Shown here: in pieces, positions 11,066-58,644 of the stretch
Numbering within the stretch: position 1 is the stretch's first letter
Layout: each line of letters starts with the position of its first letter
Origin: Escherichia phage MX01
Sequence record: NC_031934.1
DNA length: 64,000 nucleotides
Reading direction: 5' to 3' (one strand)
Position numbers and translations under genes: made by a program
The notes under the pieces: generated by a model
The model's database searches: none
Told to the model about the DNA's origin: nothing
What the model saw: only the letters and a program-made list of their open reading frames with translations

Positions 11066-11680
11066 TCAGTAAGAAAGAACGGAAAGATTCCATAATGTAT
11101 AATCTTGCCATCCATAAACCTTCTCAATAGAGTCTACGCGCAGCGTAGTTCCCGCAGGGAACATCATCTCATCCTCATCATTCACTAGTTGTAAGTTTGA
11201 AGTTCGAGTTATTTCAGGATACGGCCCGTTGAACTCTTCGGGAGGAGCGCCACAAATCATTTTAAAGATTGCTTCCTGATAATCAAATGCAAAGGGAGCA
11301 TCGTTAATACAGAAAATATTTTTAGTTCCGTAAAAATTATATGAAGCAAAATTACGGGCAATCTTAAAATCTTTAGAGAAGCTCATTACCCGGTCAAATT
11401 CAATAGTAGCACCGACACATCCTACCGATTCAAGGTATTTCAAAGTTTTCTTAGAAATCCCACGGTACAACTTGTCAGGCACTACAGAAGTCAGATTCTT
11501 ACGGATAATTTTATTCAGAGTTTCTTGGATGCAGTCCGGTTTATTTTCCATACACTGCCAGAGGGTACTCTGTTCTAAATCAGAATACTGCTGGTCGATT
11601 TCACACTGAATGTTTTCACGGAAATCATCGCACTTAACATTGTCATAGAACTCTGATAATCTATGGTTAGGGTATAACAT
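11066..11680 (-). CDS. modA: ADP-ribosyltransferase, ModA/ModB family
   Basis: R-S-E ART motifs: LYRG, SFS, EDEMMF; modA versus modB assigned by position only. Confidence 0.75.
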   Translation of the reverse strand: MLYPNHRLSEFYDNVKCDDFRENIQCEIDQQYSDLEQSTLWQCMENKPDCIQETLNKIIRKNLTSVVPDKLYRGISKKTLKYLESVGCVGATIEFDRVMSFSKDFKIARNFASYNFYGTKNIFCINDAPFAFDYQEAIFKMICGAPPEEFNGPYPEITRTSNLQLVNDEDEMMFPAGTTLRVDSIEKVYGWQDYTLWNLSVLSY

Positions 11681-11705
11681 ATTATTCTCCTCAGTTGATA
11701 GAAAG

Positions 11706-11735
11706 ATAGTACCACAAGCTTCCTTGCCTGTAAAC
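11706..11735 (-). promoter_or_regulatory. early promoter (GTTTAC-N18-TACTAT)
   Basis: Cassette upstream of modA-like gene. Confidence 0.6.
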
Positions 11736-12304
11736 TAAAAATCCAACATTTTTAAATGAATTGTTTTGTACTCGATTTCGTACGGGTCCCTTTTGACGGT
11801 TTCGATTTCAACAATCTCAAATCTTGATAGGCTGGAGACCATGAACTCACATTCAGTTTCAACCATATCATAGAGGTCAATACGGGTTTCATCTATTTCA
11901 AGCTCATCCACATTCCCTGCAAGAACAAGGTCGATAGCATGATTGTAGTAGTCGAAAATGAACGGTGCATTCCTGAGACTTAAAATGGTTTTGGTTCCGT
12001 ATTCCCATGCCCCTGCGAACTGACGAGCCTGAGAGTATTGTGTGCTAAAAGAAGTAACCCGGCCAGGAGACCATTGACATCCTACTGAAAGGAGCTCTAA
12101 TTGTTCAAGTTCTCTGGGGGTAATCCCACGATACAACTCCACTGGAACGGCTGAAGTAACATGCTTACGAACCAGTTTGTCGAGGTCGTAATGGAAGTTA
12201 GGGTCCTTTTTAGCATCTAGACATTTTTCTAAAAGATTCTGTTCGTGTTTTGAGAATTTGGAATTGATTCGGTCTTGATAAAGACATTTTTGTTCGATGT
12301 TCAT
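11735..12304 (-). CDS. modB: ADP-ribosyltransferase, ModA/ModB family
   Basis: R-S-E ART motifs: LYRG, SFS, ECEFMV; GGAGG SD. Confidence 0.75.
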   Translation of the reverse strand: MNIEQKCLYQDRINSKFSKHEQNLLEKCLDAKKDPNFHYDLDKLVRKHVTSAVPVELYRGITPRELEQLELLSVGCQWSPGRVTSFSTQYSQARQFAGAWEYGTKTILSLRNAPFIFDYYNHAIDLVLAGNVDELEIDETRIDLYDMVETECEFMVSSLSRFEIVEIETVKRDPYEIEYKTIHLKMLDF

Positions 12305-18131: not shown

Positions 18132-18572
18132 TTAACCTCGATTCATAAAGGCATTAAAAATCTGGTCGTCAATTGAATAAACCGGAGCTTCCAGAATTTT
18201 CAACAGACTGTTTTTGATATACTTGCTAGGGATATCCATATTAACGCGGTCGTTCAATTCGTTGTCCGGGTGGATATCTTTAAATTCAAACCCATCAAAC
18301 TCAACCTTGTCAGGAATACCATCGGCGAAAAAATAAACCAATTGGTGCATTGTATTGCATGAAAATAATTTAGACCTCACCGCAATAAGTTCTTGCCAAT
18401 GGTTTAATTCTCTGTTAAGAAGTTTATGAGCCATTGTAATTCGATCATCGCTATCAACAAGAAAATAACCTAGGTATTGGTGGTCGTCGCTCCAAAACAT
18501 CCTGTATGCTTGTGCATTTGGATTTTTACAACGAAGTTTTTTGATAACCAAATTTCTGTTAATCTTATTCAC
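18132..18572 (-). CDS. hypothetical protein, 146 aa
   Basis: ORF in insertion between genes 61 and 41. Confidence 0.55.
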   Translation of the reverse strand: MNKINRNLVIKKLRCKNPNAQAYRMFWSDDHQYLGYFLVDSDDRITMAHKLLNRELNHWQELIAVRSKLFSCNTMHQLVYFFADGIPDKVEFDGFEFKDIHPDNELNDRVNMDIPSKYIKNSLLKILEAPVYSIDDQIFNAFMNRG

Positions 18573-19122: not shown

Positions 19123-19440
19123 TTAGATTTCCTCACAGAAGGCCCATTCTGCGTGAAACACAGTAGCGCCTTTAGTATCATTTAAACAAACCACATCTAC
19201 CGGAGCAATTACACGATAAAGACGAGGTTCTCCTCCCACTGAACGAGCTGCTCGTCCAGCATAAATCTTAGCCAAACCAATATCTTCAGTAAAGAACACA
19301 CGATTTAGGTTTTTCTTACGACCAGTTTCAGACAGAACTCCTGTCTCCTCAGGAGGACAAAGCATATTACCGATATTAGCAACACTACAACTTCCGTGAT
19401 AATACACTTTATATTCTGCTTTACAGTCGATGGTTTTCAT
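19123..19440 (-). CDS. hypothetical protein, about 105 aa, with YHGS motif
   Basis: Track start is TTG; moved to ATG preceded by GGAG; early promoter 19465-19493. Confidence 0.55.
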   Translation of the reverse strand: MKTIDCKAEYKVYYHGSCSVANIGNMLCPPEETGVLSETGRKKNLNRVFFTEDIGLAKIYAGRAARSVGGEPRLYRVIAPVDVVCLNDTKGATVFHAEWAFCEEI

Positions 19441-53779: not shown

Positions 53780-53868
53780 ACAAAAGTCCTTTGTTGTTTT
53801 ATACTATTTGCCTTTCGGCCTTAACCGATAGCGATTACCAAAAGCTAAAGCTCTACGGTTAGTATTAT

Positions 53869-53876
53869 TATTTATA
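53869..53876 (-). promoter_or_regulatory. possible late promoter TATAAATA upstream of rI-like gene
   Basis: Exact TATAAATA about 90 nt upstream of the ATG. Confidence 0.35.
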
Positions 53877-54150
53877 GCTTTTTAAGCTTACGACAATAAG
53901 AATAGAACACGTCGTTAAAATTATATTCAACCCAATTCCTCTGTATAGGCGAGGTAATGGAAAGCATATAATGCGCTTTAATTAAATCCATCCCATTTTT
54001 ATTAGGACACTCTTTATTATTAGCATTATACGTCGCTGCTACAACCTCTATCTCTCTTTTGTAAGCCACATCATCCATGATAGGCGAAAGAACAATATAA
54101 GAAATAGCCACAGCGAACGCTAGAATTAAAATCTTTGAATTTAGGTCCAT
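53872..54150 (-). CDS. membrane-anchored protein, 92 aa
   Basis: N-terminal hydrophobic helix. Confidence 0.45.
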   Translation of the reverse strand: MDLNSKILILAFAVAISYIVLSPIMDDVAYKREIEVVAATYNANNKECPNKNGMDLIKAHYMLSITSPIQRNWVEYNFNDVFYSYCRKLKKL

Positions 54151-54157
54151 AGCACCC

Positions 54158-54730
54158 TCAACTCGTTATTTCTATCCAGTGCTTCCTGCACAATGATACG
54201 TAAGAATCGTTGCCACCTATAGAAACTTGGGCTCCGTCCTTAATTGCGATACCATCTTGGACCCTAGCGGTCATAGTAGCTTTACGGCCACAATGGCACA
54301 CACCTTTGTACTCAACGAGTTTATCTGCTGTAGCGAGTAATTCAGCAGAGCCAGGAAACAGTTTACCCTGAAAATCAGTTCTTAGCCCATAGCACATAAC
54401 TGGAACATTATAATTGTCTACTATCTTTGCCAGTTGTTTTATCTGTGCAGGTTCTAAGAATTGCGCTTCATCCACAAACACACAGTGGATATCTTTTTGA
54501 GATTCAGCCCAACGATAGAACTCGTATAGGTCCATATCCGGAGTCACTGCATTAGCCTCTTGGCTAATCCCTATACGAGATGAAATGCTATGGCTTGATT
54601 CTCTATTGTCTATCACAGGCTTTAAAAGGAGTACGCCCATACCGCGTTCTTTGTAGTTATGAGCAGCCGTTAGCAATGAAGCAGTCTTCCCGGAATTCAT
54701 TGCCGCATAGTGAAAATAAAGTTGAGCCAT
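54158..54730 (-). CDS. tk: thymidine kinase
   Basis: 190 aa; P-loop MNSGKT and C-terminal zinc-ribbon cysteines typical of type II TK. Confidence 0.9.
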   Translation of the reverse strand: MAQLYFHYAAMNSGKTASLLTAAHNYKERGMGVLLLKPVIDNRESSHSISSRIGISQEANAVTPDMDLYEFYRWAESQKDIHCVFVDEAQFLEPAQIKQLAKIVDNYNVPVMCYGLRTDFQGKLFPGSAELLATADKLVEYKGVCHCGRKATMTARVQDGIAIKDGAQVSIGGNDSYVSLCRKHWIEITS

Positions 54731-54738
54731 ATTAAACC

Positions 54739-54924
54739 TTAAGCAATTAAGCTTTCTAAATAGTTATCTAAAGCATTATCAGCCTCAGTTAAGACCTTTA
54801 CCAATTCATAATATGTATCTGCATCGCCATATTCAGAATTAACTTCAAAACTGAGCTCTCTTTCGGCCTCCACAATATCACCGACTAAAGAGATAATTTT
54901 AAATTTCTGGTCATGAGTAATCAT
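54739..54924 (-). CDS. hypothetical acidic protein, 61 aa
   Basis: Small ORF. Confidence 0.4.
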   Translation of the reverse strand: MITHDQKFKIISLVGDIVEAERELSFEVNSEYGDADTYYELVKVLTEADNALDNYLESLIA

Positions 54925-54930
54925 ACTACC

Positions 54931-55125
54931 TCAGAGTGTATTTACATAAGCAATTAATTCATTTTCTTTTTTAGAAAACTCGTCTTCTTCGTCGCCGAGC
55001 CAGTCCCAGTCTAGAGAGTTATCAAATTCACATTCAGTATTCGCATCCAAAAGCTCATGGATAAGCTCAAACAATTTATCTTTCTGTTCTTTACTCAGAC
55101 TCATAACCATTGTACCTTTAAGCAA
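54931..55125 (-). CDS. hypothetical acidic protein, 64 aa
   Basis: Small ORF. Confidence 0.4.
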   Translation of the reverse strand: MLKGTMVMSLSKEQKDKLFELIHELLDANTECEFDNSLDWDWLGDEEDEFSKKENELIAYVNTL

Positions 55126-55313
55126 TATTCTTCTACGTGCTGTTTACGTTTATTTTTATCTATAAAAGTATATTCAACATATTCGCCAATATACCATTTA
55201 TCAGTGTTGTGTTGACTTTTTATAGGGCATTTAGTTACTCGGGTTTCGGCCCAGTGTCGAATAATTTCCGCTTTGTTTTTAGGGTCAAACGGATGTGGGT
55301 AATGGGCTTTCAT
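55101..55313 (-). CDS. hypothetical protein, 70 aa
   Basis: Small ORF. Confidence 0.4.
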   Translation of the reverse strand: MKAHYPHPFDPKNKAEIIRHWAETRVTKCPIKSQHNTDKWYIGEYVEYTFIDKNKRKQHVEEYCLKVQWL

Positions 55314-55752
55314 AATCTACCACCACTAAATTAATATCAGGAGTAAACAAATTAATCAATTGGTAAACCTTGTCCCAATCACCACCAGCAATACCACAAC
55401 CGATGCGAGGAATATAAATTCTGGGTTTAAACAAAAGACCCTTTGCGGTACGGTTTAATTCTATCATACAGTTTACTAAAGCACCGTAATCAAGATTAGG
55501 GCCCGGTTCGTATTGGGTGTATAAATTATAGCAAATTTGGCCATTATTACCTGTGGCTTGAGTAAACGTGCCAAGTTTTTCCAAATTGCCTAAATAAGTG
55601 GTTTTATCGATAGCGAGAATAGGCGGATAAGCCTTGGCCAATTGTCCGGCTACACCTGAACCCATTGTGTGGAAACAGTTGCACCCGTGTGCCACATTAT
55701 TACCTTGAAGAAACAGGGCGACAATATCGCCCTTAATATAATCAATAATCAT
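55285..55752 (-). CDS. macrodomain protein, TARG1/DarG-like (putative ADP-ribose hydrolase or binder)
   Basis: 155 aa; aligns by eye to recalled human TARG1 in N-terminal (IKGDIVALF...AHGCNCFHTMGSGVAG) and C-terminal (IPRIGCGIAGGDWD) blocks. Confidence 0.7.
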   Translation of the reverse strand: MIIDYIKGDIVALFLQGNNVAHGCNCFHTMGSGVAGQLAKAYPPILAIDKTTYLGNLEKLGTFTQATGNNGQICYNLYTQYEPGPNLDYGALVNCMIELNRTAKGLLFKPRIYIPRIGCGIAGGDWDKVYQLINLFTPDINLVVVDYESPLPTSV

Positions 55753-56105
55753 TTAGAGTTTAATCCTCGGTTGTATGAGTCAACGAGTCTGTCTACCATA
55801 GACGCGCACATTTCTTTGTACTTTTTATCAGATGGAATACATTCAGTAACGTTTAGACGTTGCTCGTATCTTTTAGAAAGAGTTTTCTCTTTCATTCGGC
55901 GATGCTCTACGTCATTCTGCCCATCTTTAAAAGCAGCTGTGATTTTTGAACTGAATTCGATAACGCATTCAGTATTACTTGGATGACAATAATCTTTTGC
56001 TGTACGGGTAGCATACTCTACAATTGAATTATTGCTATCATCAACTTGTGACGCTAATACTCCCGGAGCGATCAACATAAGCGCTATAGTCATCTGCTTA
56101 ATCAT
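55749..56105 (-). CDS. secreted protein, 118 aa
   Basis: Cleavable-type signal peptide. Confidence 0.5.
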   Translation of the reverse strand: MIKQMTIALMLIAPGVLASQVDDSNNSIVEYATRTAKDYCHPSNTECVIEFSSKITAAFKDGQNDVEHRRMKEKTLSKRYEQRLNVTECIPSDKKYKEMCASMVDRLVDSYNRGLNSK

Positions 56106-56645
56106 TTAATATACCGCCTCAAACATCTTTTTAGATTTTAGGTAATTGGCCTTTTCTAGAACTTCAGAAGCATATTTACTGCCTGCTTTGACGTTCCAGC
56201 CCGCATTATAAGAAGCAATCGCTTTTCTCAGGTCACCTTTGTGAACATCAATCCAATAAGACAGCTCAATGTAGGCCCAAGAGGCACTGTTCTGTCGTTT
56301 TTGGACCATACGAATTATTTCTTTATCAGACATCTTCCAACCTACCTGTTGAACACGACTTCTTAACGTAGGCAAGTAATTTTGGAACATGCCATAAGCA
56401 TGGTGCTTATCTTTATTTAAACCTTGATTAATTCCGGCGGATGATTCCTGCCATAGTAATCCTGCCATGATATATCCTAATCCTTTTTGATTAGGGTTTT
56501 CTTTGAACTTTCCCGACTTTTGGTATTGTTCACCGAAAGCATATGCATAATGCAAATTGTCGAGTTGCTCACTGTTGAAAGTAGGCTCTACGCTATAGGC
56601 AGACATACTAACTGTCAATAGTAAAGTGGCTAATACTTTTTTCAT
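56106..56645 (-). CDS. secreted lytic transglycosylase (SLT domain)
   Basis: Signal peptide; SLT motifs WQESS, AYGMFQ, AYNAG. Confidence 0.65.
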   Translation of the reverse strand: MKKVLATLLLTVSMSAYSVEPTFNSEQLDNLHYAYAFGEQYQKSGKFKENPNQKGLGYIMAGLLWQESSAGINQGLNKDKHHAYGMFQNYLPTLRSRVQQVGWKMSDKEIIRMVQKRQNSASWAYIELSYWIDVHKGDLRKAIASYNAGWNVKAGSKYASEVLEKANYLKSKKMFEAVY

Positions 56646-56657
56646 GAGACCTCATTA

Positions 56658-57116
56658 TTAAAGATAGATTACTTTCGTGCTGGTTTTACCTTCTAAACGT
56701 TTAGAGTTAACAAATGCCATACGACATTTTAACGAGTATCCTTTATCAGGATGTTTACGGTCTACAGTCATACCTAGCCATAAGGTTTTATCGGTAATTT
56801 CGAGACGCAATGGGCGATACACTTTACCAGGGACAATTTCGGATTCTACATCAGGCAGAGGTTCCTGGATTAAGAACTCATGGATTTCTTTAACATGGTT
56901 ATGGAGTTGCTTGAATAAAGCAAAAACGTATTTTTCGTCGATTTCACGTTGGATAGCACGGTCCAACAAATGATTAGAGTACTTAATAAAGAAGGCTGGG
57001 ACTCCGCTCTTAACGGCGGCTTTTTTGATGGACGTGTTCAGTTCACGGAATTCGGTTTCGAACTGACGACGTAATTTATTGCGGCGGATGAATACTTCTG
57101 AATTAATTTCTGTCAT
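56658..57116 (-). CDS. regB: RegB sequence-specific endoribonuclease
   Basis: 152 aa; strong similarity to recalled T4 RegB (EVFIRRNKLRR...HLLDRAIQREIDE). Confidence 0.88.
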   Translation of the reverse strand: MTEINSEVFIRRNKLRRQFETEFRELNTSIKKAAVKSGVPAFFIKYSNHLLDRAIQREIDEKYVFALFKQLHNHVKEIHEFLIQEPLPDVESEIVPGKVYRPLRLEITDKTLWLGMTVDRKHPDKGYSLKCRMAFVNSKRLEGKTSTKVIYL

Positions 57117-57144
57117 TTTGTAATCTCCTGTAGTTGATAGGTCT

Positions 57145-57173
57145 ATAGTATCACGTCTACAGGAGATGTAAAC
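57145..57173 (-). promoter_or_regulatory. early promoter (GTTTAC-N17-TGATACTAT)
   Basis: Canonical cassette upstream of regB. Confidence 0.65.
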
Positions 57174-57177
57174 TGCT

Positions 57178-57456
57178 TTAGTACTTTTCTTCCGGTTGGA
57201 ACACAGAACGACACGCCCACATGCTTGCTTCTTTCAAGCGTTCGATTGCCGTACGAATCTGGGTGATGCGTTCATGAGCCTGGTCTAGTTCTTGTTCAGA
57301 AACCTCTTCGGTGTCTAAACCCATATAATGGTTGACATGCTCTTCTTCCAGAGCTTTAAACATTAACCCAAGACGAACTTCAGCATCTTTGATAGCATTC
57401 ACTTTACCGATTTTATCGTCGGTATGCGGTTTATAACCCTTGATATCTTCAATCAT
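57178..57456 (-). CDS. hypothetical protein, 92 aa
   Basis: Co-oriented ORF. Confidence 0.45.
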   Translation of the reverse strand: MIEDIKGYKPHTDDKIGKVNAIKDAEVRLGLMFKALEEEHVNHYMGLDTEEVSEQELDQAHERITQIRTAIERLKEASMWACRSVFQPEEKY

Positions 57457-57671
57457 TTCACTTCCTCATCAGATGCAATATCATATTCAACTAAATGAAT
57501 CCCATCATATCCACCACGAACAGAGATATATGTGCTAGGATAAACGGTTTCTTTACCATTCCATTGGCCGCCGTCCCAGACTTCCAGAAAGTCTTGTTCG
57601 CCCTGTTCATGGAACCAATCAACAAACATCTTCAGAGCTTCATCAGAACCTTCAATAGTCAATTTAGACAT
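57453..57671 (-). CDS. hypothetical acidic protein, 72 aa
   Basis: ATGA-coupled small ORF. Confidence 0.45.
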   Translation of the reverse strand: MSKLTIEGSDEALKMFVDWFHEQGEQDFLEVWDGGQWNGKETVYPSTYISVRGGYDGIHLVEYDIASDEEVK

Positions 57672-57960
57672 ATTTTTTCCAGCCAGAAATCATATGAATC
57701 TCTTGGTTATAAGTTAAGAGACTGCGAGTAATAATACCCTTACAAGGCCCTGAGATGAACTCGAGAGTGAAGTAAGGAACCTGTTTCATTAATCGGATAC
57801 TAGGAGCATGACATCTAAAACGAGAGCCCTTAAAGGGCCCTGTCATGAATACATATTCCAATGGGTAGAAATAAGCATATTCGAAATTTGCAGTAAGGTC
57901 CTCTCTTCGAACCTTACGTGAGAAATAACAGAACTCAAAAAGTTCTTCATCAGTCATCAT
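57664..57960 (-). CDS. hypothetical protein, about 98 aa
   Basis: Start moved to internal ATG to limit overlap. Confidence 0.45.
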   Translation of the reverse strand: MMTDEELFEFCYFSRKVRREDLTANFEYAYFYPLEYVFMTGPFKGSRFRCHAPSIRLMKQVPYFTLEFISGPCKGIITRSLLTYNQEIHMISGWKKYV

Positions 57961-58484
57961 TGCATTCCTATCACAAAGAACAGAGGCAAAGGCTTGTCGC
58001 CTTGGCACATAAATTTATTAATCATTATCTGGTAAGCTTCGTAGAACTTATCCATCGCTGGAAGGCGCATTGGCTCTTCGATAATAATCAATAATCGAGT
58101 AACAGATAGTCCACGATACTTATGGAAATTGTCTTCATCAAGGAAACTGCGCACAGTATCATAGACAACAAAACCAGGACCTTCGACTTGGAGATGTGGG
58201 TGTGCCTTAGAAACCTGTTTTATTACATTACAAATTTCTCGCGAGCGATGCGAAGAACTCGACATAACAATCACATCATTACCCTTGGAAACCCAATCAG
58301 CGGCGAACTGAGCAAGGGCACTTGTTTTACCTGTTTGGCGTCCGCCATCAAGTCGAAGAGTACCAAACTCTTGCATTCTTGAAGCAGGTTCATACCATGT
58401 GTATTGGTCTGAGTCTAAACGTTCAATGGCGCGTTCAGCGAAGGCGTGCATTAAGGTTAGATAAATGGGAGTTAAAAATTTCAT
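57957..58484 (-). CDS. small P-loop NTPase, 175 aa
   Basis: Walker A GGRQTGKTS, Walker B LLIIIEEP. Confidence 0.5.
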   Translation of the reverse strand: MKFLTPIYLTLMHAFAERAIERLDSDQYTWYEPASRMQEFGTLRLDGGRQTGKTSALAQFAADWVSKGNDVIVMSSSSHRSREICNVIKQVSKAHPHLQVEGPGFVVYDTVRSFLDEDNFHKYRGLSVTRLLIIIEEPMRLPAMDKFYEAYQIMINKFMCQGDKPLPLFFVIGMQ

Positions 58485-58644
58485 AGTAGTCTCTTAGTGG
58501 TGGGGCCGTTCCTTGGCACATAATTCGTCCATGTATCCGTATGTAAACCCTTTACCGCACTTGGGCTCGACCTTATTACAGGTAGGGAAAGGTCCATCAC
58601 TCAGAGGACGCGACGTTCATGAGGAGAGGGCCGGCTTGCCTTTA

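Follow-up and report, generated by a model that had tools for sequence, protein, structure and literature searches.

DarTG systems stop phages through ADP-ribosylation of the phage DNA. When adfA and the NADAR gene adfN are both missing, T4 stays resistant to DarTG2, and therefore another factor must be encoded (PMC11825919). In a T4 transposon library on DarTG2-expressing E. coli, tk.4 was the single significant hit, with insertions in this gene lost only on the DarTG2 host, and a clean tk.4 knockout made T4 DarTG2-sensitive; tk.4 received the name adfM (anti-DarT factor Macrodomain) (10.1101/2025.11.20.689424). The key genetic evidence rests on this November 2025 preprint, which infers ADP-ribose removal from DNA via structural similarity to Mtb DarG and leaves the catalytic residue of Tk.4 without discussion (10.1101/2025.11.20.689424). 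The name AdfM was coined independently for gp104 of PhiKZ, and neither study cites the other. PhiKZ gp104 was shown biochemically to strip DarT2-made ADP-ribose from an ssDNA oligonucleotide (PMC13309987, Cell Rep 2026).

The macrodomain protein SCO6735 of Streptomyces coelicolor carries the catalytic residues of neither TARG1 nor DarG, cleaves thymidine-linked ADP-ribose off DNA, and rescues DarT toxicity (PMC9411070). Its activity was abolished by the substitution Q85A and lowered by G128E. His24, Val25, and Asn27 were shown to be important for activity, Asn27 locks Gln85 in a productive rotamer, and an extended mobile loop bearing Lys89 and Lys94 aids DNA binding (PMC9411070).

Within the window (the whole 64,000-nucleotide stretch of DNA that was analyzed), the sole macrodomain was the 155-aa protein encoded at 55285-55752, here referred to as the window protein. 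All sequence blocks quoted in the original prediction were present in this ORF. The gene and its assigned neighbors are as follows.

54158-54730: thymidine kinase gene (tk)
55285..55752, (-) strand: tk.4/adfM ortholog, ATG start, encoding a single-domain macrodomain protein of 155 aa
55749-56105: vs (PHROG 1256)
56106-56645: vs.1 (PHROG 600)

The gene order tk, tk.2, tk.3, tk.4, vs, vs.1, regB, as found in Bp7 and T4, was likewise found in the window. The stop codon of vs and the start codon of the macrodomain gene overlapped as ATGA, as they do in T4, and the 3′ end of the macrodomain gene overlapped the start of tk.3 by 29 nt, as in Bp7. The window protein was 53% identical to T4 Tk.4 (E value, 2e−62; residues 1 to 151 of the 155 in the window protein). 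Because gene order, overlaps, and full-length identity are the same or agree, the gene at 55285-55752 can be assigned as the ortholog of T4 tk.4 by both position and sequence, and for T4 tk.4 the Tk.4/AdfM function has already been described. The two proteins share their length, their position between tk.3 and vs, the ATGA overlap, and the invariant residues detailed below, including Gln80. However, 47% of their residues differ, the T4 protein is from a Tequatrovirus and the window protein from a Dhakavirus, and the DarTG2 phenotype is known from the T4 allele. The 3.1 kb around 55285-55752 was 96 to 97% identical at the DNA level to Dhakavirus LHE83, QL01, WG01, Bp7, and IME08 (megablast), where the matched ORF was labelled tk.4, “phosphatase,” or “hypothetical protein.” Placement in the AdfM group would allow the last two of these annotations to be corrected in the near-identical Dhakavirus genomes. 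More broadly, tblastn identified Tk.4-type relatives in 2735 of 50,697 phage records.

Between tk and tk.3 lay two adjacent small ORFs on the (-) strand, 54739-54924 (61 aa) and 54931-55125 (64 aa), both matching PHROG 653. In the Bp7 annotation this interval holds one gene, tk.2, and in T4 it holds tk.1 and tk.2. The two-ORF difference at 54739-55125 probably accounts for the gap in megablast coverage (90 to 93%, in 2 to 3 pieces). A promoter and terminator scan of 53800-58500 returned 13 promoter-like sites against 13.8 expected and was uninformative on expression, while the full window gave zero matches in scans for tRNAs and Rfam families.

The protein had originally been predicted to be a TARG1/DarG-type macrodomain, and Pfam, profile searches, and the predicted fold all agreed with this. 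The Pfam Macro model (PF01661) matched residues 22 to 132 over profile positions 2 to 117 of 118 (32.6 bits against a gathering cutoff of 22; E value, 8.6e−8), and PHROG 335, labelled “phosphatase,” was matched with an E value of 5e−67. A single-sequence search of solved structures placed Bacteroides BT1257 on top (5e−9), followed by SCO6735, Poa1p, Mtb DarG (9e−5), and TARG1 (0.015). Two sets of relatives were then available for comparison: 71 from phages and metagenomes, used for the profile and the alignment, and 80 from bacterial reference genomes. With the 71-relative profile, the same structures were recovered at E values of 9e−20 (BT1257), 1e−17 (TARG1), 2e−16 (SCO6735), 1e−14 (Poa1p), 3e−11 (Mtb DarG), and 3e−9 (T. 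aquaticus DarG), with the coronavirus nsp3 macrodomains behind at 2e−4. The structure-based search against TARG1 and DarG that had been proposed as a check found a macrodomain fold, and the best Foldseek match of the predicted model was human TARG1/OARD1 (4j5s), with a TM score of 0.77 to 0.85 across the whole domain. The alpha/beta fold with two glycine-rich ADP-ribose-binding loops was present, and members of the ALC1-like class (BT1257/SCO6735, Poa1p, DarG, and TARG1) were clearly on top in the fold comparison. Both sequence and predicted structure thus put the window protein nearer to this class than to the MacroD, PARG, or viral nsp3 macrodomains, and it is classed here as a TARG1/DarG-class (ALC1-like) macrodomain.

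Within that class, the window protein is neither a DarG nor a TARG1, because the defining features of both were looked for and were absent. The DarG2 macrodomains of M. tuberculosis (5m3i) and T. aquaticus (5m31/5m3e) have a catalytic Lys in the motif FPTK, whereas the window protein has Gln80; DarG2 also has a C-terminal DarT-binding domain and a neighboring darT gene, and the window protein has neither. The NCBIfam DarG equivalog model (NF048014) scored 20 bits against a cutoff of 250, and the match covered positions 3 to 138 of 338, the macrodomain part only. No DarT2-like sequence was identified by tblastn in the window (best E value, 0.9) or within 4 kb of the 80 bacterial relatives (best E value, 7), both searches having used a single query, with limited sensitivity for a distant DarT. 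The Lys84/Asp125 dyad of TARG1 is replaced by Gln80 and Ala122 in the window protein, although both proteins have a PRIGCG loop. In contrast, the features of an SCO6735-type site (the Gln, its locking Asn, the neighboring His, and the loop Gly) were all found. Identity to SCO6735 (PDB 5e3b) and BT1257 (2afc/2fg1) was just ∼25 to 29%, the motif NMIGQ of these two proteins reads NLYTQ in the phage clade, and the loop after the Gln is shorter and non-basic in the phage clade, which is acidic overall. The extended Lys89/Lys94 loop of SCO6735 was absent from the window protein. Taken by analogy, the window protein, which belongs to the Tk.4/AdfM orthologous group, probably works most like SCO6735.

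The residues on which this comparison turns map to the following positions.

55645..55692, (-) strand: residues 21 to 36, AHGCNCFHTMGSGVAG, first ADP-ribose-binding loop with invariant His22, Gly23, Asn25, and Gly33, from alignments
55513..55515, (-) strand: codon CAA for Gln80, at the catalytic-Lys position, from HMMER profile alignments and invariance
55372..55413, (-) strand: residues 114 to 127, IPRIGCGIAGGDWD, second (phosphate-binding) loop, from alignments

The original prediction that the TARG1 catalytic lysine is substituted was confirmed, and the residue found in its place is an invariant Gln80, present in 71 of 71 phage and metagenome relatives and in 80 of 80 bacterial relatives. 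It aligned to Lys84 of TARG1, Lys80 of DarG, and Gln85 of SCO6735. In the profile-to-TARG1 alignment, NlYtQyepG of the family stood opposite YLITKKRAS of TARG1; in DarG and PhiKZ gp104, Gln80 paired with the Lys of FPTK, and BT1257 and SCO6735 carry NMIGQHG at this position. When eight reference macrodomains were aligned directly with MAFFT, the Gln region of SCO6735 and BT1257 was misplaced, and HMMER profile alignments were used there instead. The first-loop residues were invariant in both sets of relatives, and His22, Gly23, and Asn25 aligned with His24, Val25, and Asn27 of SCO6735. In chain 5e3b a 20-residue tag offsets the numbering, such that chain residues His44, Val45, Asn47, and Gly148 are His24, Val25, Asn27, and Gly128 of SCO6735. 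Mutation of the Asn corresponding to Asn25 in PhiKZ AdfM (N23A) reduces activity (PMC13309987). In the second loop, P115, G118, G120, and W126 were invariant in the 71 phage and metagenome relatives; Gly120 corresponds to Gly128 of SCO6735, and Ala122 occupies the position of the TARG1 catalytic Asp125. All 80 bacterial relatives also keep His22, Gly23, Asn25, Gly118, Gly120, and Gly124. By analogy, the Lys-to-Gln change is best read as the mark of a known alternative active site, because SCO6735, with Gln85, actively cleaves thymidine-linked ADP-ribose. Of the two explanations initially offered for the substitution, a different mechanism or a binding protein, the former therefore stood and the latter did not: an inactive binder was rejected as the main reading because SCO6735 sets a precedent and the pocket residues do not vary. 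This has a practical side, in that catalytic-dead controls would call for Q80A or N25A rather than a Lys mutant.

It was also predicted at the outset that the gene could be an anti-DarT counterdefense, and the genetics of the T4 ortholog Tk.4/AdfM bear this out (10.1101/2025.11.20.689424). For the window ortholog, at 53% identity, the same role may be expected, the role would be enzymatic, and the substrate would be thymidine-linked ADP-ribose on DNA. In the mechanism proposed, a free-standing macrodomain would be made within the tightly packed tk-regB gene cluster and would bind ADP-ribose attached by host DarT2 to thymidines of single-stranded phage DNA. Hydrolysis of the N-glycosidic link would restore replicable DNA and defeat DarTG2 abortive infection. 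Catalysis would most likely be of the SCO6735 type, not the lysine mechanism of DarG and TARG1, with Gln80, held by Asn25, positioning the distal ribose and a water molecule. Overall, it is likely that the window protein hydrolyzes the thymidine-linked ADP-ribose put on phage ssDNA by DarT2 and does so with a Gln-type active site. Counting against a DNA glycohydrolase are the identity of just 53% to the T4 protein that was tested and the sequence that follows Gln80: the loop QYEPGPNLDY is short, acidic, and free of Lys, whereas that of SCO6735 reads QHGMKTGSKGAPVRY. The isoelectric point was considered as a clue to the substrate and rejected. The pI of the window protein is 5.5 against 9.7 for SCO6735, and TARG1 is also basic. 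PhiKZ AdfM, however, is active on ssDNA (PMC13309987) despite being acidic as well, so that a low pI says little against DNA as the substrate.

Three other accounts of the protein were weighed against hydrolysis of DNA-linked ADP-ribose. The ALC1 macrodomain, an ADP-ribose binder, also has a Gln at the Gln80 position in the alignment, and the window protein has neither the canonical catalytic Lys nor the TARG1 Asp; it might then neutralize DarT2 mainly by binding the toxin or the modified DNA, as a noncatalytic or weakly catalytic inhibitor. Interaction with DarT is enough for the catalytically dead variants SCO6735 Q85A, DarG K80A, and TARG1 K84A to inhibit it in vitro (PMC9411070), and for this reason binding may contribute as well. 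As the principal mode of action, binding is highly improbable and fits poorly with the pocket, since invariance of His22, Asn25, Gln80, and Gly120 across 151 phage, metagenome, and bacterial sequences is what would be expected of an enzyme, and the C-terminal domain with which DarG binds DarT is missing. A catalytic role could also be directed at a soluble ADP-ribose derivative rather than DNA, such as ADP-ribose-1″-phosphate (as with yeast Poa1p), O-acetyl-ADP-ribose, or an immune signal built on ADP-ribose. In structure, the small-molecule phosphatase Poa1p is as close to the window protein as DarG is, and this resemblance and the transferred “A1pp phosphatase motif” annotation are what the suggestion rests on. 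The name “phosphatase,” however, is a motif annotation carried over and not a test, the phenotype of T4 tk.4, being specific to DarTG2, argues for DNA-linked ADP-ribose, and SCO6735, the closest sequence relative with a known substrate, acts on DNA (PMC9411070). A soluble substrate is accordingly regarded as unlikely.

The remaining account, put forward as an alternative in the original prediction, is that the macrodomain erases or reads marks made by the phage's own transferases (ModA/ModB, the small H-Y-E ART, or Alt), tuning or recycling them. The window was predicted to encode two ADP-ribosyltransferases at 11066-12304, and two matches to PHROG 832 were indeed found there, together with a third, minimal ART-fold protein elsewhere.

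11066-11680, (-) strand: Mod-type ADP-ribosyltransferase, 204 aa, PHROG 832 “RNA polymerase ADP-ribosylase” (E value, 9e−42)
11735-12304, (-) strand: Mod-type ADP-ribosyltransferase, 189 aa, PHROG 832 (E value, 3e−37)
19123-19440: small minimal H-Y-E-type transferase (ART fold), beside dmd

Neither of the tandem Mod-type genes reached any Pfam model, and Alt is located elsewhere in the genome. The presence of these transferases favors such a pairing, but Alt, ModA, and ModB belong to the R-S-E transferases and target arginine, and the ALC1-like macrodomains (TARG1, DarG, and SCO6735) are known to act on ester- and thymidine-linked ADP-ribose and are not known to act on the arginine-linked form. 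Myoviruses are enriched in both Macro and ART domains (PMC9503650), which also speaks for a link. On the other side, tk.4 has been reported to matter to T4 under a single condition, DarTG2 (10.1101/2025.11.20.689424), and T4 keeps tk.4 yet lacks any gene between dmd and 41; tk.4 is therefore independent of the small ART. Action on the phage's own marks is thus very unlikely. That the macrodomain has two roles, one against DarT2 and another in erasing a nucleic acid mark written by the minimal H-Y-E transferase beside dmd, is speculation, and the chance of it appears remote.

Returning to the preferred reading, a Gln-type hydrolase directed at DarT2-made marks, the nature of the active site also matters for inferring the origin of the gene. 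PhiKZ gp104 matched Mtb DarG at an E value of 9e−25 and retains the Lys, whereas its match to the window protein had an E value of 0.005 at 20% identity. The two proteins that bear the name AdfM, ∼20% identical, are of different kinds, gp104 being Lys-type and DarG-like and T4 Tk.4 being Gln-type and SCO6735-like. Relatives of the gp104 type were found in 276 phage records, compared with the 2735 of the Tk.4 type, and in largely different phage groups; among the matches listed, they were mostly from jumbo phages, with some from ∼76-kb Escherichia/Shigella phages. Phages have probably recruited two different macrodomain subclades, with differing chemistry, under the one name, as judged from these sequence comparisons. 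For the T-even clade, we infer recruitment from free-standing SCO6735/BT1257-like macrodomains and not from a DarG antitoxin. Neither the Gln-type site of the T-even clade nor its origin separate from the PhiKZ/DarG type was found in the literature consulted. In T-even phages, the macrodomain AdfM would act against thymidine marks as part of layered countermeasures that also comprise AdfA and the NADAR enzyme AdfN, which is directed against guanine marks.

The bacterial relatives of the Tk.4 type were single-domain proteins of ∼150 aa scattered among unrelated genes. Some were nonetheless located next to ADP-ribose or NAD genes, at the following loci.

L015, L042, and L067
L018, L041, and L074
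L011, L020, L071, and L005

In three Undibacterium genomes, one or two ADP-ribosylglycohydrolase genes lay beside the macrodomain gene, and NAMPT-like and PRPP-synthetase genes were found beside some of the other relatives. A NADAR gene was the neighbor in three unrelated genomes (Ruegeria, Bacteroidales, and Victivallales), a pairing that mirrors AdfM and AdfN of T4, the thymidine and guanine erasers.

A further anti-DarT locus of T4, 61.2 (adfA, 208 aa), lies between a 61.1-like ORF and spackle. At this position, the window encodes a 146-aa protein that belongs to another family (18132-18572, (-) strand; PHROG 8539). When T4 adfA was sought in the window, the match was confined to the last 14 to 15 residues of this protein (SIDDQIFNAFMNRG), and the same tail also matched the Pfam AdfA model (PF23813). 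The locus at 18132-18572 may represent an anti-DarT factor A locus that has been replaced or has undergone recombination.
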